A DNA stretch of 63,406 nt, filler included, from Hausera hauseri (lineage: Eukaryota), in the NCBI GenBank assembly GCA_046269625.1. It is 11 parts of 11 records of this genome, joined end to end, with 100 filler letters (N's around TTAATTAATTAA, not from the genome) between each part and the next. Parts side by side here need not be neighbours in the genome. Positions count along the whole stretch, not along the records: positions 1 to 4,669 come from JBJURY010482132.1; 10 more parts are not named here. One strand, 5' to 3'. Of the stretch, positions 1 through 53,720 are shown in pieces. A program made the position numbers and the translations under genes. The first letter of the stretch is position 1. Each line of letters opens with the position of its first letter. Below the pieces are notes generated by a model, which saw only the letters and a list, made by a program, of their open reading frames with translations, was not told where the DNA came from and searched no databases.

Positions 1-662
1 TGTATAAGGGTTTTTCGATTATGAGGAATCGATTCCCGCTGTTAGATTTTTCGAATAATTGGATATTCAATATCCGAGCTCGAAAATATGCGAATTTCAA
101 ATATTTGACTCGAGATTTGAGATCACCACACTTGAATTCCTGTCTGCCTCTGCTAATTATAATATCGAATTTTCCTTTCTTAGGGCCTAAGAAACCTATG
201 TGGAGTCTGTCCCAGTTGCAATTTGGATCAATATTATTCGAAAACTAATCGATAAATTTAAATCCTAACTGCATATTCATATAGTGCACCATGTATGTGT
301 TCGAATGCACCTGGTCACATGACCTAATTATCAATATTGGAAATATCGGAAAACCGATATTATTGATTTTTGCACACTTGCACATAGGCTTCACACCTAC
401 CTTGTACGCTAATCGATGCGCACTTATGTGCATTATCGACTAGCACTTTGCTCCGATCGACTTGATCAATACTGCACTGTGTAGCGATCGATTTGTGAAA
501 TGTGCAAAAATGTGCTTAGCGACGGTGCCTAGCGGCACCGTCGCCTAGCACTCTGCCGATCGTCAGGGCACACTTTGCACTATCGATTATCACGTGTGCA
601 CTATCGATTTATCGACGCGTACATCTCCCCGGGAGGGGCCAGAATTCCCAATTTTCCCTACT
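1..662. repeat. Inserted repetitive element end (LTR- or TIR-like) truncating the Polinton integrase; GC-rich hairpin at 519-544
   Basis: Reverse complement of ~495-662 closely matches 39733-39892 (GATCGG.AGAGTGCTAG.CGACGGTGCCGCTAGGCACCGT.GCTA). Perfect 11-bp stem GCGACGGTGCC-TAGC-GGCACCGTCGC. Integrase homology stops abruptly at ~663. Confidence 0.7.
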
Positions 663-1091
663 GTGGGCGTTGTAGAATTCTTTACCCAAATCCGTCTGTA
701 TATACTTCGGCTGTTGTTTTTGTACCAGTGTCTAAACAGCATTGGTAATCTCTTTACCGTATTTCGATTTAACGGAAATTTAACGTGCAAAACGACTAAG
801 CATATCAACGCATGTCAGCATGTACCGATACCCATCGTTGATGCTGGAATACGGAATAATTTCCATTAGATCCATTTGATATACATTATTTACACTGGCA
901 GCACGGTTTGCACGAGTTGAAAACCGCCTTCTTATCAGTTTCTTTAGGCTGTAAGCTAACTGTTTCCCGAGCCAACGTTGGGTCTGTTGCCGAATCTGTT
1001 TGTCGACGCCAGTATACTCGACGTGATTACGTGGATCGAACCACACATCGCCAATTGGTGTTGTCGTCGATGGCGTCGGTTTTGCTTGCAT
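663..1091 (-). pseudogene. Polinton rve integrase (N-terminal/core part, disrupted and truncated)
   Basis: YQMDLMEI...GYRYMLTCVDMLSRFA, continuing past stops as ISVKSKYGKEITNAV*TLVQKQQPKYIQTDLGKEFYN (first two catalytic Asp motifs); the catalytic Glu region is missing. Confidence 0.9.
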
Positions 1092-1197
1092 TACAACAAT
1101 TAGAACGAAACGTTAATGAAAGATTCGGTAAACTGGGAAAGAAAGACGAACTCCATGCACCCATATCGCCAAATCATCATATACTTACCGTCATTGT

Positions 1198-1481
1198 TTA
1201 TACTAAACTGTTCCACCAATGAGTCCACCAGTAATGACGTGACAACCGGTGGAAATGCACCAAGGAATCCTCCGTCTTGCTGGTTGTAGTTGTTTACAAT
1301 TGTTGCCACAATGACGGTAATTTGCGTCTAGCTGATGCTTTTGTTGCTCGACGAAGCACAGAATTGATTAATCGCTTGACTGTAGCGGTTTGTTTTGATA
1401 CTCATTTCTTGCGGATATCTGCTTGGTAGGTTTACGTTTAACAATTGTTTTTCGGAAATTCTTCATTTTTATCATAATCAT
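1198..1481 (-). pseudogene. Small basic core protein of Polintons/adintoviruses (adenovirus pX-like), frameshifted
   Basis: K/R-rich N-terminal frames (RLINSVLRRATKASARRK) followed by NQQDGGFLGAFPPVVTSLLV. GG|F plus a hydrophobic tail resembles the pX/adenain-cleavage signature; lies between ATPase and integrase. Confidence 0.65.
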
Positions 1482-2134
1482 GTCGTCGATTTTCGAATTT
1501 GTTTATAGATACATACACCTTTCTGATTAAAAATGTCTGTTCGTACACGCATGTCATCGGGACACTATTGCGCAAAATCAATGAACAAGTATCTGTGTAG
1601 CTCGACCGTAGCATCATGACATGCATCTATCAAGTATGCTCAATTGTGAGGAAATACTTGTCGTGCAACATAATCAATGATAGTCCGATCACGGGGATTT
1701 TTGAACAACACCAAATAGTGTACATTTAGGTTTCTTGTTCGATGCTGTCTGCCCTGATGAAACATGTTTTGCGTAATGAAAATAACCGTCATACCACGGA
1801 GACGTGCAATCTTCGTGAACAGGTTGTTGAAGTCGGTTGGTTTCGTTGCCTCTTGAAATAAATCGTCACTGACAATAACGTCACCGTTGCGTAACCTCTC
1901 AGACCAGTTTTTATAAAACCCATCAATTACCGTTACCGATTTCAGTTTACAAAATTCTATATGTGTCAAACCGGACTCTCCATCATCACCATTGCCTTGA
2001 TGCCAGTAAATGTGATTGAACAGCGGCGATTGCAATATGTCACAGTAATTCTGCAGCAATTTGCAAACAAAGTGCGTTTTGCCACTTCCACTGGGGCCTA
2101 CAATCTGGAAAATTGCACTATTCTGCAGCTTCAT
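1478..2134 (-). pseudogene. A32/FtsK-like genome-packaging ATPase (two in-frame stops near the C-terminus)
   Basis: Walker A GPSGSGKT; Walker B VIVSDD; ITQNMF; RNLNVHYLVLFKNPRD; reads through stops into AYLIDACHDAT...YLFIDF...RVRTDIF. Confidence 0.93.
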
Positions 2135-2151
2135 GTCGTTGGTGATTCATT

Positions 2152-2191
2152 TCTTATATATTTTGTTTATAATCACACACATATATAAATA
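2152..2191. promoter_or_regulatory. Divergent TATA boxes between the ATPase and TBP-like genes
   Basis: TATATAAATA at 2182-2191 on + and ATATATAAGAA on - at ~2151-2161, each close upstream of an ATG. Confidence 0.5.
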
Positions 2192-2221
2192 GGTGAAGCA
2201 TGAACACTGTTTCAGTCAATC

Positions 2222-2673
2222 ATGGTAGCCAATATCAGTTATCGCGGACATGTTACTGAATGTATTAATGTACTGCCGCTTAATCAATGGAAGCCAAGGC
2301 AGTATATCCACAAATGTTCACCGGATATTACATGCATCATATTTCCATCTGAAAAGTGTCGTATTATGGGTTGTCGCAAACCAATCACAAATGATAGACA
2401 TTTACCATTCGGAATTGTCATTGACCAAATTCAATCAATAACGGTAGCGTCTCAGTTAGATTGCTCACCACCATCAATTAATCTGCACAAATTAGCAATG
2501 GCCAATGAAGTATTTATGAGCCTGAACTGTTTCCTGCACTGCGACTAACACAATTCGGCCAGATTTTTGTCAATGTGTTTAGCAGTGGAAAAATTGTCGT
2601 ATTGGGTATTCGGTCAATCAACTATGAGACGACTATTAATCAAATTAAACACCACATAAGTGTTTTTTGCTGA
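2222..2673 (+). pseudogene. TATA-binding-protein-like gene (two TBP repeats), one frameshift near 2510
   Basis: Repeat 1: VANISYRG...ITCIIFPSEKCRIMGCR. Repeat 2, in a shifted frame from 2515: YEPELFPALRLTQFGQIFVNVFSSGKIVVLGIR, matching TBP YEPELFPGL...LLIFVSGKVVLTG. Confidence 0.8.
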
Positions 2674-2741
2674 ATCAAAGTAATATACTCTGGCCAGTGG
2701 ACAATAAATACCATTCTCATATTCGTTCAGATATTAGTACG

Positions 2742-3530
2742 ATGGAAAACGAGGATAAAACGATTCTGCTCAATAATACTTCTGACGATGACGAAAGTAC
2801 AGATTGGTAATGGCTGTTTGATGCCAAGAATGACAAAATCAACTATCTGGAACCGAAACCGGTCCAACAATTAGTAAAACCGATACTAAAGCGGCAAGGG
2901 AGAATTATTGGTGGTAAACGCATGCCAGACGAAGATACAGCGATAATACTCAATGATGTTGATGGTGATGATGAAAGTTGCGATTTGTCACGAGTGCTTG
3001 GTTACTACATTTTTAATGTCAACTATCTGGAACCGAAAATAGAACCTCTCCAACTATTAGAAAAGCCTAATTTAAAACGACAAGCGCGAATGACTAATGG
3101 AATACAGAAACGAAAATTAAAGCCCATGCATAAAACACCCACATTTTTACCGACGCGACGTTTTCGAAGGTATGAAATGCATTATCTGCAAACGCCAGTA
3201 CAGATTTCGTTGAATGATCCGGTGTTGTTGACCACACTCAAGTACAGTTATCGTGTAAAGCAGCTATCGAGTGAAAATGTTGCGAAACTTGGTGATGCTT
3301 TAAGTCAATTAAACATGGACTTAAAGTTGAACGAAACAACCTTACAGCAGCAATATATCGTTTTACCGGCCGCAAAATCTAAATTGATTGATTTTATCGG
3401 CCGTGAAATGTCTAATGTGCCAGATGACTTAAAGTGTCGATTCAACATTGAATTGCAGCGATACAAAGAAAAGGACGGTGTCAAGAGCCTGATTTGGCGT
3501 TTATTCGAAGCATTTTTTGATTATCAATAA
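2742..3530 (+). pseudogene. Hypothetical Polinton protein with a duplicated acidic/basic N-terminal unit (one premature stop ~2808)
   Basis: The ATG at 2742 is in frame with ORF 2922-3530. Two copies of ED..I.LN...DDES...NYLEPK...KP.LKRQ.R; AATAAA overlaps the stop. Confidence 0.55.
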
Positions 3531-3586
3531 ATGTTGTTGTTTTAATTTTCTTCTTCTTCTACAATGAGTATAAATATACATGTGTA

Positions 3587-4078
3587 ATGGACTTTTCATT
3601 AATAATGATAATGAATGATGTACAGATTATCTTAACAGATGAAAATACCTCTGTACTTAGACGTGTTACAGCAAAAAGTGCAGGCCACCATGTGTTTTCC
3701 AATGTCAATTCGACAATTTTGGACAGCAAAATCAAATGTATAACGACCGGGATTCGATTGACGAATCCACCCTGTTACTACGGCCAACTGTTATTGAAAA
3801 GCGGATTGGCAAAGCTCGGACTGACGGTTGTGGGCCGCGGCGTCATTGATTCAGACTTTCGTGGTGAAATTATGGTGTTGCTGGAAAATCAATCCGGGGA
3901 AACGTGTGCTATTTTGAAAGGCAATGCAATCACACAAATTGTTTTTCTTCGCTGTGAAGAGGGGGAATTCAGTGTAATGTCACCGGAACAATGGTATTGT
4001 TTTGTGTCAATGAAACTACACGAAATGAATGCAAAGAATTTGGCTTTGGTGATATGGACAAAACCGACTATGAATTAA
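3587..4078 (+). pseudogene. Trimeric dUTPase (C-terminal motif V frameshifted)
   Basis: TTGIRL, LLLKSGLA (motif II), GVIDSDFRGEI (motif III), ITQIVF (motif IV); TTRNECKEFGFG lies in another frame; TATAAATA at 3569. Confidence 0.88.
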
Positions 4079-4158
4079 TGATTTGTGATGATAATAATAC
4101 TAATAGTTAGTTGTTTTGCTTGTGTTATAAACAAAAATGATTTTGTCCATGATAAGTA

Positions 4159-4646
4159 ATGGCGACAGGATTTATAGATATTGAAACTTTCCGAGATGAT
4201 AATGCCAGATACCTGATAAAGGAGTTATGCATTATGGACGTCGGTAACATTTTCAAACCGCTTGTGTAAGTATTCAAACCCGCCGTTATGTGGAATCAGT
4301 TGACAGAAAAGGCGAAAATTACCAATGGGTATCTTATACGACGTCGTCATGGACTTTTTTTGCACGAAGGCAATTCAGCGTTTTGCGTATCATGTATCAT
4401 GAGATACACTTGTGATCGTTTTGGCATTGTAAATACAATATTTTACATTAAAGATCAAATTAGCGGACAAAAGTTTACACAACTACATTCACAGTTTCCG
4501 AGTTGCGAATGACGACGTATTCAATATCGAACAGCTCGCTGGCGATGGTACCTAACAATACTAGATGTCTGTATCGTGATCATGGACCGCATTGTGTTTA
4601 CAAAAAATGTCTACGGCTTTATATTGACTATATTTCATGCAAATAA
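4159..4646 (+). pseudogene. DEDD-like (DnaQ/RNase H fold) nuclease with C-terminal C-H-HC-C Zn motif, Polinton accessory gene
   Basis: GFIDIETF...LIKELCIMD (ExoI-like DxE); TNGYLIRRRHGL; C-terminus CLYRDHGPHCVYKKCL; one stop and one frameshift; homologous to 33093-33428. Confidence 0.65.
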
Positions 4647-4669
4647 ATAAATGTATTTCTCTGTTTCTT

Positions 4670-4769
4670 NNNNNNNNNNNNNNNNNNNNNNNNNNNNNNN
4701 NNNNNNNNNNNNNTTAATTAATTAANNNNNNNNNNNNNNNNNNNNNNNNNNNNNNNNNNNNNNNNNNNN
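4670..4769. other. Artificial contig spacer
   Basis: N44-TTAATTAATTAA-N44 (stops in all six frames). Confidence 0.99.
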
Positions 4770-11629: not shown

Positions 11630-12446
11630 TTAATTAGAAACAAATGGTGCTAACAAAAACTGATATCCAGGTCTAACCGAAAAGGCCTTACGTGTGCAAC
11701 AGTTGATAAGGTCTATCTCACCGGACCAATCTCCAGAAATCTGAAATTTCATATACAGAAACGTTCTATCATCAATACTGTATGTCTCAGGCATCGACAT
11801 ATGTAACTGCTCGATTACCGACGAGTCAGCAGTACTGACAATAGCTACGAATTCTCGCTCACAAAGAACGACCAATTTATCGTTGGAAAGATCCATGTTA
11901 CTTCGAAAGTCGGACAATGACACACAGTGACGCCATCTGTTTATCGAGAAATGGTAGACGAAAACATTCATACATCCGTTGACTTTCCCCGATAGTAACA
12001 AAAATCCATCATTATCTACTGTACAACCACCCGCTGATAAAGATAACATAGAGATGTTCGTACGACTGAACAAATCGTCCGGTAAACCACCAATGCTAAA
12101 CTTAGTCCATTCCCCATTTGACGGATCGAATTCCCAGATTTCATTTAAAGGTCGATCGAAATCGTTGATACCACCCGCAACGAAGATAGAGCTATTATGG
12201 CCAACAGCGACGGCGTCTATCATAACTCGCGGTGTTATGAACGATAGACGACGCCAAAAATTGTTTCCACTGTCATAAAATAAAATGTCCCGAGAGACTT
12301 CACAAGTAGCCTGATTATCTTCAACGGTATGACCGCCGAACAAGTACACAAAACCTTCAACACAAGCCACAGCAAAACTACTCCGATGGCATTCTAATTC
12401 CGCCATGTCTTCCCATCTTTTATCAATGAGATTGTATCTTTCGCAA
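11630..12446 (-). CDS. Kelch-repeat protein, probable terminal exon
   Basis: CERYN...W..MAEL...RSSFAVACVEGFVYLFGG; IFVAGG...IWEFDP...W. A likely splice acceptor (TTTAACAG) lies at ~12447, so the ORF-track start at 12508 is probably intronic. Confidence 0.85.
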
Positions 12447-12762
12447 CTGTTAAAAGTCAAAATCAAATTTGCGAGGAAAATTGTAGAAATAATATACAGT
12501 ACTTCCAAAAAGTAATTTCATTTTAACCGAACCCATGAAGAGTTCAATGAACTTAGTTGGCCGATTGAAGTCTACAAATCATCGTAAATACCATCCGAAA
12601 TTATATGGGAACGAATGTTACCGTCCTAGTCCTAGAAACCAATGTTGGAGACTTCTAGATGCTTAGACATAATAGTGAGTAACTAGGCAATTTGCCGAGA
12701 AACAGCCATCGTAGAAGTCCGATCAGAATAATAAGAGAGTGGTCTTATGGGATTATATACAT

Positions 12763-16994: not shown

Positions 16995-17252
16995 TTATTC
17001 ATAGTAAATACGTATAATTTCATTAATGTTACTTTTACATACTGGACAATAACTTAACTTTGAACATATCTGACATAAAACTAGATGACCATACGTTAGG
17101 ACAACAGTATCCACTTTATTTTCTACACATAGTACACATATGAACATTGATTCAATTGTTTTCTTTTGTATGTTCTTTAATTGTACATACAACTTTTCAA
17201 CAGTACCGAAATAATCTACGGCAGAAAAAGCATTAACATTTGCTTCAGACAT
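16995..17252 (-). CDS. Small IAP/MDM2-type C3HC4 RING protein (one Cys ligand replaced by Tyr)
   Basis: CVLCVENKVDTVVLTYGHLVLCQICSKLSYCPVCKSNINEIIRIY; TATA ~30 nt upstream; intronless. Confidence 0.8.
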   Translation of the reverse strand: MSEANVNAFSAVDYFGTVEKLYVQLKNIQKKTIESMFICVLCVENKVDTVVLTYGHLVLCQICSKLSYCPVCKSNINEIIRIYYE

Positions 17253-18560
17253 TTTTCACACCTATATTAAAAAAACACCAAATATATATATACCAAAATT
17301 TAAACAAAATGGGGTGGGAATAGTGAAACCACGATAAGCACAGAAAATGCTTTATTCACTGCTAAAATTAAAACGAAATTTTTGGCGCAAAATTCACATT
17401 TTTTATACCGGCCGAATCCACACAGTACGCGTGATTGTGTGTATCACTTTCATGACTGTTTGTATCCTATCTACACCCTATTAAACGGGTATGTAAGTAT
17501 CAGTTTTTCTACCCCATGACTCATCTCCGAACCACTTCGTTTAACCTTCCATGGGGGTTCCATGCTAAAGATGCCACATCTACCTACTACTGGCCGTTTT
17601 GCAGCCTATTCCGGAAGCTGTGTACAATAACTGTTTTGATCGAATTACATTTCTCAAAATTGATTATGTCCACAGCTCGCAAAATTTATTATATCCCTGA
17701 AATAAATCTGAAAATTGAAAACAAACACCTCGGCAAATAATCTCCACAGAACAAACAATTATTATCACACTGAACAAACGTGATAGTTATTCTAAATTGC
17801 TTTGTACATAATTTTTATGGACATAGTGATATTATGTTATTAACTGTATACACAAAACGTGTTGCAAATCTACTATATAAACTAGAACATTCTATGGTGA
17901 AATGAAATATTCGAATATTCTTGTGACATCGAGTACCACTTTTATGTCTATAAATGAGTGATCATTGTTATTTACATTTATTCGTTATATGTATCGTTGC
18001 TTTATTGAATATGTAATATTTCAATTTTTCGATATTATATTTTTCTTATATGATTATATTCGTATTATTTTCATATTCGTATTATTCGTCTGAGAAAGTA
18101 ACTTCAGTAAATAAGTAAGCGTACTAAAACGCTGTCGACCAGGTCCCTACCTGACGACGGCCCAAGTATCATAAGTAACCTAATAGGACAATAAACAATA
18201 GAAAGTAAAGATATAGTAACTTGTAAAGTAACCTTTTGTTCACAGTAGTACAGTATCCAGACAATTGCACTTGTTATTTAAGTCAATATAAATAGATGAT
18301 ATAATTATTTACTTTCAATGAAAAAGATATCATTTCTCTTCAGCTTTCATGCTATATTGTATTAATCACGTTAAACATAAATGAAACATTTTACGTTTAA
18401 ATATTGATTTGATGTTTTTTACAATAATTTCAAAATGTTGTATTTTCAAGATTAACAAACTTTCATTTATTAAACATGGATTACATCAACTCTCTTACGT
18501 ATGATTAATTTGTATATTACAGATATTTAAATTAAAATCAAAAATCAATACTGATTTATT

Positions 18561-20825
18561 TCAAAGATAACTGTTTAAATATTGATTGTACAGATTGTTA
18601 ATATCAGATACTGATTTAGCTGGTACATCCAATTTTTTCACAACACTTACAAAATTTTGACGAACTTGAGGAGAATTAATCGAAGAAATATCAATATCTT
18701 GCTTCGAGCTTGCATTACTTTGACAATTTTTATATTTCTCAGTTATGTAGTTACGTCTTGAGTTACTCATTTGGATAAAAAAGTCATTTGGCAAGAAACA
18801 CGGTAAAGACGTCAACGCTTGTTGTACAGTACCATCAATAGGATATCCCCAAAAGTCAAAAATGGGTATAAGATTTTGTCCAGTGATTAAACTAGTTATG
18901 TTCATCCAAGTTGCCAACTTTGAATTATCGTTTTGTGGATTTATTTTGTTGTCAACATAAAATTTAAATACTTTATTATAGAATCCCCAACCAAAGTGAT
19001 TTGCAAGTTGAGCATAAATCATGAGAGCTGTGAATGCTTGACCTTTCCAGTCTTTAAATGGACACCCTCTATCCAAGTATGCCTTAACTTCTTTTATATC
19101 AGTATTCTGCAGATTACTTCCTTTGTACGGTAATTTCCAAAGTTTGTCGTAATTATACAGACATAACAAATTATTTGTTACTTCACCAGTCCCATCATAC
19201 GTCCATGCGCCTTCTTGCATATTATGTCCAATTTCATGGCACATTCCCCAACTTCCTTCTGACCGAATTTTTGTCAAATTAAAAATACCACCATGCCAAT
19301 CTGGAAAAACCATTATTGGATATCCACTATGTCCAGATCCAACTGAGATTTGAACATCAAGTACGACAATTTCAGGCCGTTTTATTTTCCAATCAACATT
19401 TTTCATGAAGTAATCCATTCGCACTAATTTATCCCAATTATTTGATGTTAAATCTTGTACGTATTCTTTGGTGAATTCTCTGACATATTCTGACTTTTCA
19501 CAAATAACCAAATTATCCCCAGCTATAATTGACCACAAACCTTCATTATACTTATTATTATCCCATTGCGATACTGATGTTGGATCTCGAATATTAAAGA
19601 AAGGTGTTGCAACGACATTCGAAAAAGATATTGTAAGTTTGTCGTTTACCTTTCCGTTAGTTAACCATATTACCCCACCAAAACCAGAAAATATTTCACC
19701 CTCATTGTCAAGACTTCTTTCAGAAAGGTGAATGTATGGATAACGGTACCAATATTTCCTCGCATCGCCCAATTCATCAGTATGGCAACCGACGGATATT
19801 CTCCAATTTCCCGTATTCTGATGAATTTTGTATCTCAATGTATCACCAGCTTTTAAATAATATCCTGTTGGATTTTTGGTATTTTCAGTGATGCCTGAAA
19901 GACTAAGAGTAACAATTGTTTTATTTGGGGGTCGCTCAAAATCTGTTGGGAATACATCAGAACAAGGCGGTTTGTAATTTGAGTTTGCAAGAAGTTGGCT
20001 ATTAGCAAGTCGGCCGAAAATTGATGCAACCAATCTGTCATTGGGGTCAGATACGGAATTTGCTATACAAGGACAAATATATTGAAGTAATTTGTCGTAT
20101 TTCTTTAACAATGGTTGGATAATTTTGCCCAGTGATGATTTCGTTAAAAATGTATTGGAAAAGGTATCTAATTGCTTGGCAACAATTAAACCATATTTCA
20201 ACAGATAATCATGATTTTTTGCTATCCTTTCAAACTTCCCACCGATATCGAGTATGTCCTCATTAATGTTGCTCGGTGACAACGTAAATTTAACTGGTGA
20301 CCAGTTCATTATTGACGAACCCCAGTCTACTCCGAAAAGACTTAATATTTTTAAATAAGCTTCTCTTGCTGGGCCTTGTTGTGTATACCAGAAGGTATTG
20401 GTGAACAATATTGAAATGGAATTATTATACAGCATTGCAGTCATAGCATCTATTACAGAAGGATCATAGGCAAAACCAACATCGTAATCCAATATGTTTC
20501 CTTGTTTCAGTCGTGCATTTAGATCCGCAACAGTTTTGATATTTCGTCCACTCACAATTAATGGATTGTCCACACCTGACATCCATTTCAGAATGTTCTT
20601 TCTTATAGAACTATTAGACGATAAGGAGTTTAACATGTTTTGTTTTCCGAACACTCCAATACGTCCCTTTTTGTCATTTGTTTGACAAAGAACACCATAT
20701 ATATTGCCTTTGATATTTGGGTCCCAGATGACGGGTTGACAATTTTTGTTAAGAAATATAATTTCATTCGAGTATGTATCTGGCGAAATTGTTTCTGACT
20801 CTCGAATGATTTCTTTGGCGATTGT
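18561..20825 (-). CDS. M60-like zinc metallopeptidase (TCAF/FAM115/enhancin-like), long intact exon
   Basis: PTGYYLKAG; VGCHTDEL; DVQISVGSGHSGYP; WGMCHEIGHNMQ...GTGEVTNN (HExxH...E). The frame stays open upstream of 20654 to a splice acceptor TTTCCAG at 20826. Confidence 0.93.
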   Translation of the reverse strand, partial: TIAKEIIRESETISPDTYSNEIIFLNKNCQPVIWDPNIKGNIYGVLCQTNDKKGRIGVFGKQNMLNSLSSNSSIRKNILKWMSGVDNPLIVSGRNIKTVADLNARLKQGNILDYDVGFAYDPSVIDAMTAMLYNNSISILFTNTFWYTQQGPAREAYLKILSLFGVDWGSSIMNWSPVKFTLSPSNINEDILDIGGKFERIAKNHDYLLKYGLIVAKQLDTFSNTFLTKSSLGKIIQPLLKKYDKLLQYICPCIANSVSDPNDRLVASIFGRLANSQLLANSNYKPPCSDVFPTDFERPPNKTIVTLSLSGITENTKNPTGYYLKAGDTLRYKIHQNTGNWRISVGCHTDELGDARKYWYRYPYIHLSERSLDNEGEIFSGFGGVIWLTNGKVNDKLTISFSNVVATPFFNIRDPTSVSQWDNNKYNEGLWSIIAGDNLVICEKSEYVREFTKEYVQDLTSNNWDKLVRMDYFMKNVDWKIKRPEIVVLDVQISVGSGHSGYPIMVFPDWHGGIFNLTKIRSEGSWGMCHEIGHNMQEGAWTYDGTGEVTNNLLCLYNYDKLWKLPYKGSNLQNTDIKEVKAYLDRGCPFKDWKGQAFTALMIYAQLANHFGWGFYNKVFKFYVDNKINPQNDNSKLATWMNITSLITGQNLIPIFDFWGYPIDGTVQQALTSLPCFLPNDFFIQMSNSRRNYITEKYKNCQSNASSKQDIDISSINSPQVRQNFVSVVKKLDVPAKSVSDINNLYNQYLNSYL

Positions 20826-22136
20826 CTGGAAATAGAATGAACTTTTGTTAATTAGTTAAAATATTGTGGAAAATATTAAATAACTAATAAATAATTAAAT
20901 TAAAATATTGTCGGCTTTTAAATTCAGATTATTTGCTCCAATATTCGTAAGGATTTTGAGTTTCGATAAAATGTTTCATTGGTCATGTGACGTGTTAAAT
21001 AAATTTATTTTAGTATTGTTGGACGGTCAACGTATTTTACAGCTTCTTTATTTAAGGATTATTTTAATTTATTGAATCTTTTATAAGATAAAATAACTGT
21101 TACAGAAGTATACCGCGTTTTGTAAATTGTGTTATGGTTATTTAATACTATAAAAGAAAATTATTTTATGACCTTATTGTTAACAGTAACCAAAACGGCA
21201 ATCAATTGACCTTTGGCAATTAATAACACATGACATAAAATGACAAATAATTTCCTTTGATTGACAAATAATTGAGTGGTCTGTCGAACTATTTGTTTCT
21301 GTGACAATAATATTCTTTCCGTACTATTCGTGTCGACTGNNNNNNNNNNAACAAGTGATCTTTTCATATTATTCCCCAGAATATTTTATATCGATAGAAG
21401 GACTATATAAACGTTTGATTTTCCTGGATACATTTTCTGCATATAACAGTGTTATTCTATGACAACTGTGCGTACCTTTTTAGTTTCTTTGAATAGACAA
21501 TTTGATATTTTCTATAATCATTAAACATTTGTATTTTTGAGTATGTGTTGATTCATTAATTAAGTTTTCTATGTGAATTTTATAAATACGTGTCGATTAA
21601 TTAACCTTTTCCTTAAAAGGGTATAATTAAGAGTTTTAAAATTTCTTTTCCCTTTTGGTATCCTGGTCATATAAAACCGAAAGTATAAAATTCTTAAATA
21701 GGGGTAGCGACGCTATTGTACCTCCTAGTGATCGCGACTCACTAAGGTCAGCTAAATATCACCAAGCTGACCCCACAGGCTGTTTCAAGACTATATAAAA
21801 CTCAAAGTCTAGAGGGAAGGAGAAACCTCACACTACGATTAATTAAGAGTACAAGTTTGAGGTTGCGAATCCAAACTTACTTTCGAACCCGCAAACTTAT
21901 CGTTATTATTAAAATTAATATTATTTTCCTTCTCGTCACCTCAAATCAAAAATCACTTTTGTTCTGAAATGGAATCTTAAAAGCATAATATTATATTATG
22001 TTTTTAAGGAGAGTCGGAAAAGTCAACTAGTTCGACATATCAAGGTGATCCAACTTAAGTATGAATACCAGTCACCTAGTTCACAGAAAAGAGACGAAGG
22101 AGAACAGATTTAGATACTAGTAGTAACAATCAGAAC

Positions 22137-24457: not shown

Positions 24458-25435
24458 CTATTTTAGTACAAAAGTTGTGGTTTCCGTGTGCATAAGTTCC
24501 ATTTCGGGGTGCTCAGTGTTATTGAGTAGGAGGGCATAAGTTTCAGACAGTTTTTCAGGTGTCAGGGCTGTGGAGATAATGCGAGTGGATAAAATACGGA
24601 AACAGGGTATACAACAACAACCACAAACAGCTAAAATAACGAAACAAACACCTGTAGCAATCATGAGAGACATAACGATGCTTTTCCATTGTCCGAACGT
24701 ATTGCTAAACCAATTGGAGATAGGGTCATTTATGCCTGATGCATCTTGCATTTCTTTAGACAAATCTTTGATGCCCTGTAGAGCTCTGGATACTTTACCA
24801 TCGGGTGCTGTGTTATTAGGTATGAATGTGCAACATTCATCACCAATCATGTGACAGACGCCTCCTTGTTCAGCTAAGAGCATGTCTAATGCAATTCTAT
24901 TTTGTACAGCCATTTTGGACGTGGGGCGAAGTTGGTCAGCGAGGCCTTCTATGGCATTACGAGTTAAGTTGGTCAAACGTAAAACATTGTAATGGACAAA
25001 GTTTATTCTTGCTACATTTTTGTTTACTGTCACATAGGGAATTAAAGATTCAAAACCTGCTAATATAGGGTTGGCTAGTTTGTATTCATCAGGTACACCT
25101 CTGGGTACACCAATTGCATCTATGTAAGTTGGTGAAACTTCTGGATCAAAGTCTGTAGATCTTCGCTTCCTGTTATGTGTAGTCTTGGCTAAAGCATGGC
25201 CTAATAAAGTAAGGGGTGCAGCGAGGCGAACTAGAGCGCAGAGTCCTATGGTTTGGGTAGGGATTTTTACAGATAGTCTTTGGCCGCCACAATAGTAATA
25301 TAAACCTGCTCTGGCCCAGGAACCAATAGTCTGGTTGTATTCATTTGTGGTAGTTACCTGGATTGTGGTGTTACACCAGTCGTGGTTTATTTCTCCATAA
25401 TTTTGAATTGGACTAGTTGTAGTAAAATTAAACAG
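24458..25435 (-). CDS. env: ERV envelope (C-terminal SU and TM; 5' part lost)
   Basis: Open frame upstream of the tracked ORF gives furin site RKRR|ST and YIDAIGVPRGVPDEYK; ISD AVQNRIALDMLLAEQGGVC; CX6CC; TM followed by CGCCCIPC. Confidence 0.93.
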   Translation of the reverse strand: MFNFTTTSPIQNYGEINHDWCNTTIQVTTTNEYNQTIGSWARAGLYYYCGGQRLSVKIPTQTIGLCALVRLAAPLTLLGHALAKTTHNRKRRSTDFDPEVSPTYIDAIGVPRGVPDEYKLANPILAGFESLIPYVTVNKNVARINFVHYNVLRLTNLTRNAIEGLADQLRPTSKMAVQNRIALDMLLAEQGGVCHMIGDECCTFIPNNTAPDGKVSRALQGIKDLSKEMQDASGINDPISNWFSNTFGQWKSIVMSLMIATGVCFVILAVCGCCCIPCFRILSTRIISTALTPEKLSETYALLLNNTEHPEMELMHTETTTFVLK

Positions 25436-25468
25436 TGATATCCGCCTATGATTTTGCTGGGTTTAAAT

Positions 25469-29069: not shown

Positions 29070-32000
29070 ATGTGCAATACACAACCCGCAGAATTGCCAC
29101 AATGCCATGAGGAGCTATTCTGGATACAAATTCAATAGAGTGCTCTATTATATTTGTTCTGGATGTGAAGCTGTATGTGATGGAGAATACATGCACTTTT
29201 ACAAAGCTCATATTGCCCACTAGACAGACTTCAATTCAAAACCAAAGAAGGTCATATTTAATGAGCAGCATCCTGCTTTCCTGGAATATTCAAGGGAGGA
29301 GGCAGCAGGAATTCTCCAGGACAACTTGTTGCAGCTGGTGGCCCTTAAGGTGAACTTCAAATTGGAAGCCACCTTCACCATTGTCAAAGGAGAGCTGTCC
29401 AATAGTGCCTTCAAGACAAGGAACAGGCCACTATTGAAATCCTTTAACATTAAGGATTTCATTACAGAAGACTATGCAAGGCTCATCCCTGAAGCCGAAG
29501 AAAGCCAGGACAAGAAGAGCGGTTGGACTTTAGCAACAATAAAGGGGTTACTTGTGTATGTGCACAAGCATTCTCCCATGGGAGGCAGGTCCTACATAGT
29601 GCTTCCTGAATGGATAGTTAAGAAAAAGGCATGTGTCAATGTCCATAATATGACAACATGTGTTTCATGTATGCCATTTCATCAAAACTAATCCAGGATC
29701 AGCGTAATGCTTCCCGAGTTTGGACATATGACAAAGTGCAGTACACATACGACTTCAGCTGTATTTCATTACTGCCGAGCCTAGATGAAGTTGTGAAATT
29801 TGAAAGCGTGAACAACATCTCAATCAACATGTTCGGATTGGAGGAGGACAAATTTTATCCATTACATGTGTGCAAGGAGGAATTGGAGGATCGTAGGGAA
29901 CTGCTCCTGCTAGATGATGGAGAAACGAGGCATTTCATCTAGATCAAGAACTTTGAGCTCCTCGTGGGATCCCAAATATCCAAGCATAAATCAAGGCTGG
30001 AAATATGCAAGAGATGCTTTACCCATTTTAATGGGTAGACAGCCGCAGAAAAGCTGGTGGAGCACAAGACCTACTGTAATACAAACTATTGCATCCGAGC
30101 AGAATTCCCCAAGGAGGTTTACCTGGAATTCAAGGGGTTTGAAAAGATGCAGAAGGTGCCGATTGTTGTCTATTGTGATTTTGAGGCCATCCTTAACTCA
30201 GTTCACAGCTGCAGCCCTAATCCCCAACATAGCAGCACAACAGCATACCAATATCATAAACTCTCATCATATTGTATGTATGCCAAAGGACTGGACAGTG
30301 AACCATTTCTATTTAGAGGGCCAGACGCAGCAGCACATTTTATGAAGAGATTAAAAGACATGGCTCATAGGCTTGAAAACATGCTTCAGCACATGAGGAT
30401 ACAATAATCATATCGAAGCAACAAGAAGATGAATGGCGCAAGGCAACAACATGTTACTTGTGCGACAAGTCATTCACCAAGGATAATTATAAAGTCAGTG
30501 ATCATTGCCATTTTACAGGCAAATATCGAGTAGCTGCATGCAACAACTGTAATCTTTGTTGCAAAACATGTACATATGTGTCTGTAATGTTCCAAAATCT
30601 CACTGGTTATGATTCCAACTTCATTGTTTGGGAACAGGGTAATATTGAGGGGAACACTGATGTCATTCCAAACAGTGAGGAAAAATATATCACCCTCACT
30701 AAGCATGTGAACCGCATTAGACTTCTATTCATAGACAGCTTCCGCTCCATGAGCTCGTCACTGGGTAGTTTAGTGAAAATCCTCCCTGCAGATGAACTCA
30801 AGGAGACGAAGCGGTTCTTTCCCACTGCATTTGACCTCGTCAAGAGAAAAGGCGTGTTCCTGTATGATTATAATACATCATGGGAAACACTGGATGAAGA
30901 AGCATTATCGGACAAGAAGGACTTCTATAGTCAGTTGTTACCCAGTCACATTAGCGATGCTGACTATGATCATGCCCAAAGAGTATGGCAAACCTTCCAG
31001 TGCAGGACAGTAGGGGAATACAGTGATATCTATCTCTTCACAGATGTGCTGCTGCTTACGGATGTCTTCGAAAGCTTCCGGGATGTGACCCTTAAGAGAC
31101 ACAAGTTAGATCCAGCCCATTTCTTTACAGCTTCAGGAATAAGGTGAGCGGCAATGCTGCGCTATACCGGCATAAAACTGCAGATATTGAAGGATTACAA
31201 TGTGGTCCTCATAATTAAATGAGGCATCAGGGATGGAATATGCCAGGCCATTCACAAGTACAGTGAGGCCAACAACAAATATATGGAAGACTATGATCCA
31301 TCAAAGGAATCCTCATATATATAATATCTGGATGCCAACAACTTGTATAGATAAGCAACGAGTAACCCATTGACCTATGGTAACTTCAATTGGGTCAAGA
31401 ATCCTGAAAACATCCCAATATTGTACCTAAATCCCACTGGAGATACGGGCTATATACAGGAGGTGGATGTGGAATACCCACATAACATCCACACAGGGCA
31501 TAAGCAACTGCCATTTCTGCCGGACAGCAAGAAGCCACCAAATGGTAAGCATAAGAAGCTGCTCTGCCATCTCGAAAACATGGCAAGGTATGTAGTCCAC
31601 TACATCAATCTCCAACAGGCCATCCAAAATGGACTCCGAGTCATCAGGATTCATCGGACCCTGCAGGTCAGCCAGTCCAAATGGTTGAATCCATACATAG
31701 ACCATAATACCCAGTTGAGGGCCAATGCCAAGAACGAGTTTGAAAAAGACCAATTCAAGTTATATAACAACTTGGTCTTTGGCAAAACTATGGAGAACAT
31801 CCGGAACCAGATAAATATTGAGCTGGTATGTGACTGGAAGAGGGCAAAGAAACTCATCGCCAAGCCCAACTTCCACAGCAGCACAATCTACACGGAGAAT
31901 CTGATGCGCATCCATATACTCAAGATATTACTTGAGTTCAACAAGCCTATATATGTGGGCATGTCCATATTGGATCTATCCAAGACCTTGATGTACGACT

Positions 32001-32524
32001 TTCATTACAACATCATGGCCCCTGCATTCAAGGAGTTCCAGCTAATGTACATGGACACGGACATTTTTATATACCAGATCCATACAGATGATATCTTTGA
32101 AAAGTTTGCAAAATTGAAGCAGTATATAGATACCTCGGACTATCCGAAGGATCATCCAAATTACTCAATCGTTAACAAGAAGGTCCTCGGGAAGTTTAAA
32201 GACAAGGCGAATGGGAAGATCATCACCCGTTTCGTGGCGTTGAGATCAAAAATGTACGTCATCGATGTAAGTGGTCAGGTAAAGAATCAGGCCAAGGGAG
32301 TTCAAAGGGCAACATTAGCTAAAGACATTGGCTTTGGAGATTTTGAGAGAGTCTTGCGGGAGCAAACTCACATAGTCAGCGAGATGAAAAGGATCCAGTC
32401 ACGGGAACATCATATTGCCACAGTTGCGTTGCAGAAGAAAAGTCTTGACTGGTTCGATGGCAAGAGGCACATTCTTGAAGACAAAATCCACACACTATCT
32501 CATGGGCATGTGGCATTATTGTAA
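29070..32524 (+). pseudogene. Protein-primed family B DNA polymerase of a Polinton/adintovirus, fragmented
   Basis: SGWTL; VYCDFEA (ExoI); DHCHFTGKYRVAACNNCNL; QNLTGYDS; FIDSFR; KGVFLY; YLDANNLY; KLYNNLVFGKTMEN; YMDTD; LRSKMY; AKGV. Confidence 0.96.
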
Positions 32525-32751
32525 CAATGTTCATATTGTTATTCTTTGTTATTCTGTGTTCAATAAATGTTGTATAGAAATATCGTGTTGTCTTCTCGAT
32601 CAAGTAATGTGGGATATAGGATAAGTCCAAGTAAAACTAAGTAACTACTATATAGGTTAAGACCAAGTAAAACTTAGATCAATAAAATCAGTAAATTTGA
32701 ATAATCATTACAGTGCGACATTTAATTGTATTAATCTTTCATTATTTTAAA

Positions 32752-32958
32752 ATGTTGAAAACTTGTCCGATTTGTTGGGAGCAGATGCCTAATAAAACAA
32801 AGAGATTGGCGACATGCGACACACATACATTCTGCACAGAATGTCTGCAAAAATGGCTAAGCAGTAAAATGTCATGTTCGATATACAGAACAAAGTGTGA
32901 GTATGTGGTAGTCCAGAATGCTGAAGACCAGTGCCTGTATGTAAGATGGGTAGAGTGA
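32752..32958 (+). CDS. Small RING-finger protein (Polinton accessory, last ligand degenerate)
   Basis: MLKTCPICWEQ...TCDTHTFCTECLQKWL...SCSIYR. Confidence 0.75.
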   Translation: MLKTCPICWEQMPNKTKRLATCDTHTFCTECLQKWLSSKMSCSIYRTKCEYVVVQNAEDQCLYVRWVE

Positions 32959-33092
32959 CTGATAAAAACCCTACATGAATTCTTACCAGACAATAACAGT
33001 GATGATACTATTATTATGTGATTGTTGTGTTCAATACATGTTGTTTTCAATATACTTTAAATCTTATAAAACCAATTAATTTCATAACACAT

Positions 33093-33428
33093 TTATTTAG
33101 TAACAATATAACTTTGACATAACGCTAAACAGTTTTTATATGCACAATGTGAACCATGTTCATGATAAATACATGTAATGTTCTTTGGTATAGTTACCAA
33201 TTTTGTACATTTATATGCACATATTCGCAATTCTGGAAATGTGCTATTAAGTATCTTTTCCTTTCTCCCATCAGCATGGTCTTTGACATAGAACATGGAT
33301 TCATTTATATCACATATATTCCCAATATTTCGCATAATACAATCTAAGCAGAAGTGGGTATTATATTCCTCCCACGTCAGTTTATGGTGATGTTGGGTCA
33401 GGTAAGCATTGGTTGCTTGAGCCTTGCT
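33093..33428 (-). CDS. C-terminal half of the DEDD-like nuclease/Zn-motif protein (homolog of 4159-4646)
   Basis: TNAYLTQHHHKLTWEE..FCLDCIMR...FYVKD...FPELR...CIYHEHGSHCAYKNCL. Confidence 0.7.
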   Translation of the reverse strand, partial: SKAQATNAYLTQHHHKLTWEEYNTHFCLDCIMRNIGNICDINESMFYVKDHADGRKEKILNSTFPELRICAYKCTKLVTIPKNITCIYHEHGSHCAYKNCLALCQSYIVTK

Positions 33429-33528
33429 NNNNNNNNNNNNNNNNNNNNNNNNNNNNNNNNNNNNNNNNNNNNTTAATTAATTAANNNNNNNNNNNNNNNN
33501 NNNNNNNNNNNNNNNNNNNNNNNNNNNN
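33429..33528. other. Artificial contig spacer
   Basis: N44-TTAATTAATTAA-N44. Confidence 0.99.
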
Positions 33529-36500
33529 GCAGCTGAGCTTGTGTGAAAATGGGCTTAAAATTACTGGAGCTAACAGATCTGGAAATAAAATCAGCAATTA
33601 AGTTATTTACACCGTTAATGTGTTTGATCTCAAAATTGAACGTCGACAAGTATGAGATCTGTCGTTCTTGTCGAGTAGATGGGTGTTTCATTCCTATGAT
33701 ATTTATTAGGGCTTTATGGTCAGTTTGTATGGTGAAACATCGAGCAGTGAGTAAATGTGAGAAGTGTTTCAAGGCAATAACTATCGCTAGTAGTTCTCGG
33801 TCGAACGTGGAGTATCTAATTTCAGGGGGTGTTACTTTTCGTGAAAAGAACTCCAGTGGCTGATCTTCACCTTTATGGATTTGATGAAGTACTGCGCCCA
33901 CAGCAGTGGTGGAGGCGTCTGTTGTGAGAATCAGCTGTGCATCTTGTTTGGGGAAAGCTAATATTTCGACGGTTTTTAAACCTTCTCTTAGCTTTTCGAA
34001 TTTGTAAAATAGTTCAGGGATCCATTGTATTGGCCGATGTCTTTTTTTACTACTGAGGTGAGCAAATGGTACGGTAAGTTCGGAGCAGTGCGGCCTATAC
34101 TTGTGAATGAAGTGCAAAGTGCCCAAAAAGCTCCTCATTTCTGTTGTTGTTCGAAGTAGTTGCACGTTTTATAGGGCTTCAACTCGATCGTGCTGAGGTA
34201 AGTGACCTTCTGAAGAAATGATGTGACCAAGGAAATTTGTAAGCTTCTGGAAAAAGAGACATTTGGCAAAATTAATCTGCAGGTTATGCAGGATTAGGCG
34301 TTGAAAGATTGATCTGAGGTGTTCTTCGTGTTGTTTGGTTGAGGAAGAAACAATTAATATGTCATCGATGTAGGGGTGAGAATATGGAAAATCTGAACGA
34401 ATAGCATCGATGTGACGTTGAAAGGTCTGCGCGGCGTTCCGTAGTCCGAATGACATATATAGATATTCGTAAAGACCGAAAGGTGTTGTAACGGCGGTTT
34501 TTTCGATATCTTCGGGTTCCACCGAGATTTGGTGATAAGCCTTGGTGAGGTAAATAGTTGAATAGATTGTGGTGAAATTGGGGCGATGTAATATGTCTTT
34601 TATGAAGGGTAAAGGATACGCGTCCATTACAGTCAAAGAGTTTAGCTGCCGGTAATCACCAGAATGACGCCACGATCCATCCTTTTTTGCACTACATGTA
34701 AAGGAGAAAAAATGGAAACTTTGATCGATGTACAATTCCGAAGCGTTCAAGATCAGCGAATTCGGCTTCGATCGCCTGTCTGCGTCTGGACGAAAATGGT
34801 CGTACCTTTTGACTAATAGGCCTTTGATGTTGCCTAATGATGTGATGGAAAGTACTATTTTCTGGTTCTGAAAGACCTATCTTTCTTAAGTACACGAGCA
34901 CATGACATAATAAGGTACTGTTGGCGATTTTTCGGTAACTGTGAAAAATCGAGCGGAATGGTTGTGTCATGAATAGCTGAAATTTGAAAGGTACTCGGTG
35001 GCTTAACATCTGTACGTTTATTAGATAGACTGAATGTGCCGAAAAATGGATCAGAGGTAGTAATTCTATTCAATGTGTGTATTATTTTAAAGAAATCGCA
35101 CTTGTCGTTGTTTAATCTTGCTTTGTTGTCAGCATCGTATTTGATTAATTTACGAAATATATTGTGGTTATGAGAAATTGCTGGTTTAATAGTCTGTATT
35201 TTCAAAATAGACTTCCTTGGGCCGTTCGTTCGTGTGATGGTTGAGACATTATTCATCAGTTCGGTTTGATTTTTCTTGATGATGTTTTTCAAATATCGGT
35301 GTTTACAATCCACAAGGAGATTGTAATGCGACAGAAAATCGGACCCAAGGATAGCCGTTTGGACATTTGCGACTGTAAATGTCCAATGAAATTCAGGGGA
35401 GAAATTTGGCAAGGTGAAGGAAAGTGTAGAAGTTCCGAAAACATGTAACGGTTGTCCGGAAGCTGTGAAAAGAGATTTCACTTTAGATGTAACGTAGTGG
35501 ACAGTAAAGGTGAGTGGTAGAAGTGATATTGCTGCACCTGTGTCGATAAGGAAGTTTATATGTTGGGGTCTCGGGGCGATGGTAGAAGCTTTTAATGTGA
35601 ACACAGCAAAAGAAATTTTTCGGCTATTAGCAAGTGGAGAAATGCCTTCGCCAGTGCGTGCCGAAAGCTCTGGCAGCGACATTAATTTTTGAAAAAGGAA
35701 AAACAGGGCGGCTGTTAGAAGGCAGATTTGTGCGTTCCCCATTTGCATGATAAAGTTTGTTGTTAAAAGTGCAACCAGAGATGCGTCTGCGTGCATTGTC
35801 TGAATTTTGCATGATATATGCAAATGACGTTGTCTGTTTGGTATTTTTGATTATAAAATTTACGCCCTAGGTGACATTTTGTGCATTATCATCAAACCTA
35901 CCGTGGTAATAGCAAATCAGTGACCGTCCCGTTGAGGATGATTGATTATGAGATGCGGAACGGTTACGGTCAGGAATGAAAGCCCCCCGTCGAGTCAATG
36001 AAATCTCGTTCAGTTTATTGCTTATGTTACTTATTTTTGTTTGTAGGGCCGCATTTTCGGCTCGTAGTTGATTTAACTGCTGTTCGAATGTAGCGTTGTT
36101 GGTAGTAACGGCTGCAGAAATGACTGGTTGGGTGTGTACATTCAAAACCTCATATGTTTTGTCTGCCACTTCGGCCATTTTATCAAGCGTTGTCGATTCT
36201 TCGACGACAGTAAATAAGGCCCTAATTTGTATGGGCAATGCGTTTAGGAAGTAGCGTCGCAAAAGATCGGCGTTATGTTGTTTAATCACGCCAAGTGTTT
36301 GAAGTTGAACGAGTGAAGTTCTAAGGAAATCTAATGGTTTTGGGCGTTCCCATAGCATTGTCGTTGAAGAACCGATGAATTATAGAGTCCATAGATAATT
36401 CGGTAAGCTTTAAAACGGTATTGTAAAGATAGTTGTATGGATCTGGTTGATGAAAGATGTCTAGCAAATCATAAATGGACGTTTTTACATTTGGCGGTAA

Positions 36501-36990
36501 AAGACAAAGTAGGTTATGAGCTTTGGTTAGTGGATCAATGATGTTGTTAAACTGCAGCCAAAGTTTGAGAAAGCTAAGCCAGGTTTTGCTGGATTTTTCG
36601 TGATTGATAAAATACTCCGTGCACTGAGAAGAAGTGTGTTTGGCTGGCGGGACGAAAGATGTATAACTGGTGAAAGTAGATGGTGTGGTTACGGTCGTTG
36701 CTTTCTGGTGAAAAGCAAAGTGTGATTTTTTAGAGGTAGTTTTGTCAGTGGTACCAATGGTTCGTAAAGAGTCCATTCCATCACGTATGCGCAAATGTAT
36801 ATGGATAACGAGATATGGGGTCGAAGAAGAAAAAAATTGCGGACATTGGCATTAACGAGTAGTACATTATTAAGGGTTAAGTAAGAGTCTAAAAGAGCAT
36901 TAAAATGTTGTACGTATTTGCGTAAGTAAAGTTAGTCTATATGGTATATCGTTTTGTGCACCAGTATTTGTGAATTACTTAATAAAAAGT
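33529..36990 (-). mobile_element. Ty3/Gypsy LTR retrotransposon (Ubl-Gag, PR, RT, RNase H), decayed
   Basis: Gag with CYYH.RF knuckle; FLIDTGAAISLLP; DYRQLN, AYHQI, FGLRNAAQTFQR, YIDDILI; TTDAS, YSTFDRELLA, TDHK. Confidence 0.95.
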
Positions 36991-39892: not shown

Positions 39893-39992
39893 NNNNNNNN
39901 NNNNNNNNNNNNNNNNNNNNNNNNNNNNNNNNNNNNTTAATTAATTAANNNNNNNNNNNNNNNNNNNNNNNNNNNNNNNNNNNNNNNNNNNN
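39893..39992. other. Artificial contig spacer
   Basis: N44-TTAATTAATTAA-N44. Confidence 0.99.
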
Positions 39993-53620: not shown

Positions 53621-53720
53621 NNNNNNNNNNNNNNNNNNNNNNNNNNNNNNNNNNNNNNNNNNNNTTAATTAATTAANNNNNNNNNNNNNNNNNNNNNNNN
53701 NNNNNNNNNNNNNNNNNNNN
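53621..53720. other. Artificial contig spacer
   Basis: N44-TTAATTAATTAA-N44. Confidence 0.99.

Follow-up and report, generated by a model that had tools for sequence, protein, structure and literature searches.

The window, meaning the whole stretch of 63,406 nucleotides that was analyzed, consists of short, unrelated contigs strung together with N-linker spacers of the form N44-12 nt-N44, which recurs at the later N blocks, and gene neighborhoods across these joints are meaningless. The TATA-binding protein (TBP) finding is confined to the contig at positions 1-4669. This 4.7-kb contig is an internal fragment of a Maverick/Polinton element and carries remnants of an rve integrase and a packaging ATPase, both of which are intact in relatives, together with a broken TBP-like gene, a degenerate dUTPase and further broken ORFs (Table 1). 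The L008 copy of the ATPase, from a related locus, matches Pox_A32 at E 1.8e-6. Genes for pPolB and adenain were found in TBP-linked relatives only, and their place is beyond the ends of the window contig. The gene at 4159..4650 is labeled as a DEDD nuclease from its motifs, and TCAGTC at 2212..2217 is a putative initiator-like word by the initiator consensus. The ORF at 2742..3530, with its cluster C1 part, is a possible ssDNA-binding OB-fold protein, which is offered as a lead only; the atlas neighbors of a C1 member were DUF2738/DUF5871 and T7-type SSB, below the naming bar.

Table 1 Features of the Maverick/Polinton fragment at positions 1-4669 and its contig end
Feature	Position	Strand	Basis
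rve integrase remnant with stops	645..1112	-	37-44% identity to intact integrases, E to 1e-42 (tblastn); those match PF00665
ATAAAC box 5' of integrase remnant	1196..1201	-	Box before 10/11 integrase genes of family loci
Cluster C3 small conserved gene, remnant between ATPase and integrase	1229..1470 (5' limit approximate)	-	Weak tblastn match to C3 C-terminus, E 0.001-0.009
Packaging ATPase (A32/FtsK-like), two in-frame stops	1487..2134	-	60-66% identity to intact ATPases of family loci
ATAAAC box inside ATPase 3' end, ahead of next gene	1501..1506	-	Equal placement in relatives (11/13 cluster C3 genes)
ATAAAC box, 36 nt 5' of ATPase ATG, candidate late promoter	2165..2170	-	Box before 17/17 ATPase genes of family loci
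Canonical TATA box 5' of TBP-like gene	2182..2189	+	Sequence; canonical TATA before 18/43 family TBP genes
Putative initiator-like TCAGTC, ~30 nt behind TATA box	2212..2217	+	Similar TCA[TC][TA] word before 28/43 family TBP genes
TBP-like gene 5' piece (N-lobe and C-lobe start), pseudogene	2222..2500	+	76% identity to P0001 residues 1-92; tblastn of intact relatives
TBP-like gene 3' piece, other frame (acidic stirrup, C-lobe strands, last helix, stop)	2509..2673	+	PF00352 E 3.1e-6; 73% identity to P0001 residues 96-146
ORF with one early stop; C-terminal part is cluster C1	2742..3530	+	tblastn E 1e-8
dUTPase, degenerate	3590..4078	+	PF00692 E 8.7e-19; matched 0/75 related loci
ATAAAC box, 32 nt 5' of DEDD-like gene	4127..4132	+	Box before 7/10 such genes in family loci
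DEDD-nuclease-like gene (presumptive label), stops and frameshift	4159..4650	+	Matches cluster C4 in 14/75 loci; no Pfam match
N-linker spacer, contig end; unrelated sequence beyond	4670..4769		Sequence

Assembled contigs of three public runs, none of which is recorded as RNA, covered all 30 bins of contig 1-4669, in many variants, and some of them span the junction of ATPase and TBP. The element is therefore multi-copy, and the linkage of the two genes is real. In a second Polinton fragment, at 29224-33476 of the window, pPolB is fragmented (PF03175 E 2.3e-9, endonuclease VII domain), and a gene paralogous to the DEDD-like one lies where the contig ends. Other contigs of the window hold an intronless 764-aa ORF resembling M60 peptidase/enhancin (18561-20855, minus strand, PF13402 E 1.8e-50), a retroviral env-like ORF (24458-25462, minus strand, PF00429 E 2.6e-13), a kelch-repeat ORF without introns (11630-12517, minus strand), a small ORF with a RING finger (16995-17255, minus strand), and, from the ORF list, decayed gag-pol-like LTR retrotransposon copies (33473-36851, 39945-43619, 53673-56279 and 58769-59410).

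Window copy of the TBP-like gene

The ATG at 2222 opens the frame with the first of the motifs quoted in an earlier note on this DNA, the other frame, with the motifs quoted second, ends at the stop at 2673, and the frame break lies at about 2500-2515. The 3' piece (52 aa) matches the Pfam TBP family PF00352 at E 3.1e-6 with 27.4 bits against a cut-off of 22.9, and the 5' piece (98 aa) matched no Pfam family at E<=1. The two pieces match consecutive parts of a single intact 149-aa database protein, P0001, and intact relatives of 149 and 160 aa are 70-76% identical to them. The earlier note had joined the split ORF into one protein with two TBP repeats; the frames do join against P0001 and two repeats are present by fold in the intact relative, but the first repeat is without both of its helices. 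The window copy differs at 4 of the 29 positions that are at least 90% conserved in 118 relatives, and the ATPase (two stops), the integrase, the ORF at 2742 and the DEDD-like gene are also broken in the contig. The window gene is a dead, decaying pseudogene, a point absent from the earlier note, and this copy cannot make the protein. The frame break was not among the 12 of 69 indels listed for contigs aligned to contig 1-4669. The ATG of the ATPase, at 2134 on the minus strand, is 87 nt from that of the TBP-like gene, so that the head-to-head arrangement within 90 nt holds here, but it is not conserved in most relatives, in which TBP is co-directional with the ATPase or stands behind a DEDD-like gene and the place of the gene varies.

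Distribution, gene linkage and phylogeny of the family

A family profile was built from seven close relatives of the window TBP. It matched 721 proteins at E<=1e-5 among 2904 candidates, and among the 120 listed all carry PF00352 and nearly all are 131-192 aa long. Among 50%-identity representatives 242 matched at E<=1e-10; most of the 150 listed were family-like and 18 were classed as cellular-type. The metagenome scan comprised 75 loci, and 69 family loci were left when L070-L075, which have a short C-lobe match only and are probable cellular TBPs, were set aside. Scans of a viral contig collection gave no locus and hence no TBP-less control elements, and the only TBP found in a phage collection was that of a haloarchaeal virus (2 records).

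Linkage to Polinton genes, of the kind that the earlier note had proposed as a check, was found in 31 of the 69 family loci, where at least one ORF falls in the ATPase, integrase, penton-like, hexon-like, adenain or PolB clusters; hallmark ORFs are present in 12 of the 15 family loci longer than 5 kb. Pfam support within family loci was obtained for the rve integrase, pPolB (PF03175, L059), adenain (PF00770, L024) and PLA2-like genes. Conserved ORFs of 403-427 aa and 340-514 aa occupy the expected capsid and penton positions, and the labels hexon-like and penton-like come from size and position alone, these ORFs having no Pfam, NCBIfam or PDB sequence match. The neighbors of TBP differ by subclade (C1, C15, C11 or DEDD-like). 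By eye, C1, C15 and C16, which are the usual neighbors of TBP, are alike in their C-terminal strand pattern, and in several loci C8 and C1 have the appearance of a single spliced gene with two exons.

Pairwise dN/dS of the TBP genes has a median of 0.22 and a maximum of 0.50 (75 non-independent pairs, dS 0.1-1.5), and the ATPase, at 0.105 (6 pairs), is more constrained than TBP. By this sequence comparison, which the earlier note had also suggested, the TBP family is under purifying selection. P0001 is about 25-32% identical to cellular TBPs. In a quick maximum-likelihood tree, a branch with an SH-aLRT of 91 separates 66 family rows from 18 cellular-type rows; one family member (P0205), one partial row, one broken row and one duplicate were left out. 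The tree, which has no identified metazoan TBP/TRF or NCLDV rows and no true root, rejects a recent retrocopy, and of the phylogeny proposed in the earlier note it supplies the separation from cellular TBPs.

Predicted structure and conserved residues

The structure of intact P0001 (149 aa), rather than of the broken window copy, was predicted with AlphaFold2 from 118 alignment rows. The model (pLDDT 96.5) shows five strands in the first lobe, where no helix appears ahead of residue 84, and its second lobe is normal. It matches TBP in Foldseek at E 5e-9 and also matches viral TBP-like models (BFVD), and its residues 1-148 superpose on residues 164-337 of human TBP with Z 13.9 and an rmsd of 2.5 A over 146 aligned residues. 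The sequence itself scores 62.9 bits against PF00352, for which the cut-off is 22.9. The TBP fold that had been proposed for the frame-repaired gene is thus borne out by the model of its intact relative, a two-lobed saddle, and the intact protein of the short clade is predicted to be a full TBP saddle minus the N-lobe helices H1 and H2. In the model of a 169-aa relative, the alignment for which held three cellular rows, H1 and H2 are present, but the H2 of this protein contains 1 basic residue where cellular TBP has 5, and across family rows this patch has 0-3 basic residues against the same 5. Two stages of N-lobe loss can therefore be recognized in the family, a longer form that keeps the helices without the H2 basic patch and a short clade without the helices. 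The H2 basic patch is given as the contact site of TFIIA, TAF1, Mot1/BTAF1 and Brf in the available text of Ravarani et al. (PMC7221094).

Residue positions are given as yeast numbers, mapped through the cellular TBPs in the alignment, in which the anchor spacings reproduce the yeast numbering. Four residues, F116, E188, F190 and F207, are invariant in 32/32 diverse family rows. F99 is replaced in all 32 (by P in 31), so that three of the four intercalating phenylalanines are kept. Fixed changes on the DNA face are V122 to R, T124 to M and L205 to N, each in 32/32 rows, N159 being S or T in 32/32 and V161 being T in 30/32; the pattern in the 118 rows is the same as in the 32 diverse rows. I194 is R in 117/118 short-clade rows and in 19/32 across the family, and is thus not a family-wide change, and V203 is C in 118/118 short-clade rows and varies across the family. 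The available part of PMC1636458 gives L205, V203 and I194 as the altered-specificity sites of the TBP mutant TBPm3 and has these C-lobe sites facing base pair 2. Kept in common with cellular TBP are N69, F116, F190, P191, F207 and V213, and from the retention of N69, F116, F190, P191 and F207 the intact protein, as modeled, should still bend the minor groove. In the acidic stirrup, E186 is E in 113 and D in 5 of the 118 rows and acidic in 30 of the 32 diverse rows, and E188 is E in 118/118 and 32/32.

A candidate promoter upstream of packaging and virion genes

Upstream sequence was compared in 209 de-duplicated regions of 100 nt, with ORFs lacking 100 nt upstream or an ATG excluded. The word ATAAAC was first spotted by eye as one of two upstream classes and was counted afterwards. 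It is the most enriched 6-mer, present in 103 of the 209 regions against 14.9 in dinucleotide shuffles, with 5 for its reverse complement. The box precedes 70 of 78 packaging and virion-module genes (ATPase 17/17, hexon-like 8/8, integrase 10/11, C3 11/13, penton-like 9/11, PLA2-like 7/8, adenain 4/5 and C19 4/5) against 33 of 131 genes of other clusters. The TBP genes have ATAAAC in 4/43 cases, a canonical TATA word in 18/43 and an initiator-like word in 28/43. The box is mostly 30-40 nt from the ATG, with some sites inside upstream coding sequence, and is preceded by T or C at 73 of 79 sites (T 50, C 23; A 3) and followed by A or G at 76 of 79. The four boxes of the window contig, which precede the ATPase, the C3 remnant, the integrase and the DEDD-like gene, compare with a mean of 1.5 and are not a significant excess (27/300 shuffles).

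The reading of the box as an AATAAA poly(A) signal was rejected, as A precedes it at only 3 of the 79 sites and as it precedes the window ATPase, upstream of which the contig has no same-strand gene as far as the TBP gene. A second enriched word, GTCGAG (8 regions against 0.7 expected), was seen 5' of KilA-N and C23 genes in the long-form clade L058-L065.

Control elements and a separate TBP-TFIIB lineage

Baiting with the ATPase to obtain control elements gave five loci. In L076, which has the family TBP, the box precedes the PLA2-like, ATPase, C3 and integrase genes. The hexon-like gene, which in that assembly is on a different contig (L082), has the box as well, giving 5/5 module genes for the two together. 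L077, L078, L079 and L085 have the same module order and the box before 0/15 module genes, and no TBP match was obtained for them in the stretch or assembly searched. L080/L092 has the box before 0/6 module genes, two of the six being labeled by size and position. Elements without this TBP family thus have the box before 0/21 module genes in total, in three assemblies, all as partial contigs and two of them GC-richer (0.51-0.59). This is the pattern expected for a pairing of box and TBP, but shared ancestry alone could bring motif and gene together in such a sequence comparison. L076-L080, L082 and L085 are Polinton contigs inside four bacterial metagenome-assembled genomes, where they are presumably host or environmental contamination.

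L080 was discarded as a TBP-less control when a broader profile found a different TBP and a TFIIB further along the same contig, and it is therefore a control for this family only. The stretch 3778-5042 of L092 (G004:C86, a 22.9-kb contig) encodes this second TBP, which matches PF00352 at E 1.9e-11 and has no acidic stirrup, and directly after it a TFIIB-like protein (PF00382 E 4e-6, zinc ribbon E 3e-5). L092 is a distant Polinton that also carries ATPase, integrase, hexon-like, adenain-like and PolB-like genes, and its TBP without stirrup beside its own TFIIB is the pattern described for giant viruses in the available text of PMC7221094. A search of 76 stretches (299 kb, partial contigs) with one divergent viral TFIIB as query gave no match other than that in L092, which is weak evidence of TFIIB absence.

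Proposed role of the element TBP

Redirection of host Pol II, as the earlier note had proposed, is the best reading of a TBP carried by the element, and sequence comparison now supplies it with a candidate promoter. We hold it somewhat probable that the intact, shrunken TBP selects the late promoters of the element by binding [T/C]ATAAAC[A/G] and recruiting host TFIIB and Pol II. Host TFIID would transcribe the TBP gene early from a normal promoter, as is suggested by its TATA box, its initiator-like word and, in most cases, the lack of ATAAAC. The element TBP would bind the ATAAAC box with a sequence preference presumably altered by the changes at F99, V122, T124, N159, V161 and L205. The N-lobe of TBP faces the 3' half of the TATA box, and the N-lobe changes would thus face the half of the ATAAAC box that has C at position 7. 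Host TFIIB would be engaged through the kept stirrup glutamates, in keeping with the finding of no TFIIB-like gene in the loci, and deletion of the helices or loss of the H2 patch may provide escape from control by TAF1, TFIIA, Mot1/BTAF1 and Brf1. The outcome would be an early-to-late switch that needs no viral RNA polymerase and acts on the ATPase, integrase, capsid-module and protease genes. The wider proposal, that one minimal TBP of ~145 residues runs the early-to-late program in polymerase-less elements, with its N-lobe regulatory face shed, its DNA face reprogrammed and host TFIIB used, appears to us evenly balanced.

In the main rival reading, host TBP reads ATAAAC as a weak TATA variant. 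The element TBP would then not select promoters of the element but compete or serve as a decoy, by sequestering host TFIIB or sitting on host promoters. The TFIIB stirrup is indeed the best-kept surface of the family protein, and T is the commonest base before ATAAAC (50/79), which makes TATAAAC. Wild-type TBP was crystallized on a variant of the major late TATA box of adenovirus, C(-25) (1qn3, PDB title). In the usual numbering this variant is presumably TATAAAC, a word that host TBP could then bind. Hoogsteen accommodation of a TATA variant by TBP was reportedly described by Patikoglou in 1999. We nevertheless consider a decoy doubtful, because the DNA face has invariant new residues and not drift, C precedes the box at 23 of the 79 sites, the box tracks both gene class and the presence of the family TBP gene, and TBPm3 discriminates against C at downstream positions (PMC1636458, available part).

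A mini-TBP could also act at ATAAAC promoters together with a further protein of the element that stands in for the lost helices or for TFIIB, in the manner of the herpesvirus ORF24 complex. With both N-lobe helices gone, a surface for such a partner could be exposed, several conserved flanking genes are without an assigned function, and a separate Polinton lineage encodes both TBP and TFIIB, but the neighbors vary between subclades, the 76 stretches gave no TFIIB-like match outside L092 and the stirrup fits a host-type interface, which makes such a partner improbable. A non-transcriptional role in DNA bending, at a replication origin, at terminal repeats or in packaging, with the ATAAAC box an unrelated signal, would suit a gene that often adjoins the packaging ATPase or a possible ssDNA-binding gene; conservation of the acidic stirrup (E188 in 32/32 and 118/118 rows) and a strand-specific box that stands at promoter distance and is not an AATAAA poly(A) signal render this role quite unlikely. 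The intronless, broken state of the window copy would fit a host TBP retrocopy of recent date that has decayed within a single element, but the copy is 70-76% identical to intact relatives, as against ~25-32% for P0001 and cellular TBPs, the ATPase-TBP junction is spanned by contigs from other runs, and the large family, with its dN/dS of 0.22, stands apart from cellular TBPs in a tree without metazoan TBP/TRF rows. We give this origin almost no credence, and the claim of a Polinton lineage with its own TBP homolog, not a recent host retrocopy, is upheld by the tree branch, by the linkage in 31/69 loci and by the dN/dS.

The timing of animal Polinton gene expression is not described within the literature searched, and Polintons are without an RNA polymerase. 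Box and TBP form a concrete, testable protein-DNA pair, and the ATAAAC word is a practical marker for assigning uncharacterized Polinton genes to a late class. If the proposed selection of late promoters by the element TBP is true, a single gene would give Pol II an orthogonal promoter system, the family would be an altered-specificity TBP of natural origin, probably safe from eviction by host regulators, and both N-lobe helices and one intercalating phenylalanine would be dispensable parts of TBP. This system would have arisen alongside another Polinton lineage, in which a TBP-TFIIB pair of its own answers the same need, and the herpesvirus strategy of a viral TBP that reads late promoters would extend to mid-sized elements, with host TFIIB kept.

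Comparison with known systems

The rve integrase, FtsK/A32 ATPase, pPolB, adenain and PLA2-like genes are shared between the relatives of the window element and the adintoviruses or Mavericks-Polintons, according to the available text of PMC8502044, and an animal host is presumed from this adintovirus-type gene set. The dUTPase, which the earlier note had counted towards a large-virus-like toolkit, is already a label on adintovirus maps in the same source and matched none of the 75 related loci, and the toolkit idea is not supported. The Polinton TBP itself was called undescribed, but the Fig. 5 legend of Starrett et al. 2021 (PMC8502044), on MELD viruses whose PolB is adintovirus-like, has "TBP" among its gene labels, without analysis. 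The available text of that paper has no family, residue, structure or promoter analysis of TBP, the part of its supplement text that was available has 0 matches for TBP or TATA, and the accessible parts of PMC10675990 and 10.1101/2022.05.25.493380 hold nothing further on a Polinton TBP. Within the open literature searched, the "TBP" label in the legends of Starrett et al. was the only mention in the text available, and the conserved Polinton TBP family apparently has no analysis in print.

Compared with cellular and archaeal TBPs (PF00352; 1cdw, 7egb_P, 1ytb, 2z8u), the family protein is likewise a two-lobed saddle that keeps the E186/E188 stirrup. Its structural-alignment identity to cellular TBP is 20-26%, it is ~25 residues shorter than the 174-residue human TBP core, H1 and H2 are predicted to be absent and F99 is lost. 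Of the 16 DNA-contact positions in Table 1 of PMC12529657, as available, 6 are identical in P0001. TBPm3 (I194F, V203T, L205V; PMC1636458, available part) is substituted at three positions that are also substituted in the family, but it is an engineered point mutant, its residues differ from those of the family and only the change at L205 is family-wide.

Viral TBP homologs are known from giant viruses and herpesviruses, as described in the available parts of PMC7221094 and PMC12529657. The TBP-like factors of Nucleocytoviricota share with the family their divergence and the loss of the N-lobe regulatory signature, but NCLDV TBPs are mostly without the acidic stirrup (~40% conservation) and are accompanied by a viral TFIIB (both points from the available text of PMC7221094), whereas the family keeps the stirrup and no TFIIB was found alongside it with one divergent query on partial contigs. 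KSHV ORF24, a vTBP of the beta/gamma-herpesviruses, is like the family polar at V122, T124, V161 and L205 (PMC12529657, Table 1, as available). According to the same source ORF24 is a 752-aa protein with direct binding to Pol II and a requirement for viral partners, and it retains F99 but is without the acidic TFIIB residues. The family protein is a single domain of 145-170 aa with the stirrup kept and is not of the same family, and P0001, being aligned over its whole 149 aa to the TBP core, has no Pol II-binding N-terminal domain of the ORF24 type. As a virus-borne TBP fold that uses host Pol II at a private late-promoter word (PMC12529657, available part), ORF24 is the analog that the element TBP would resemble in the way it works.
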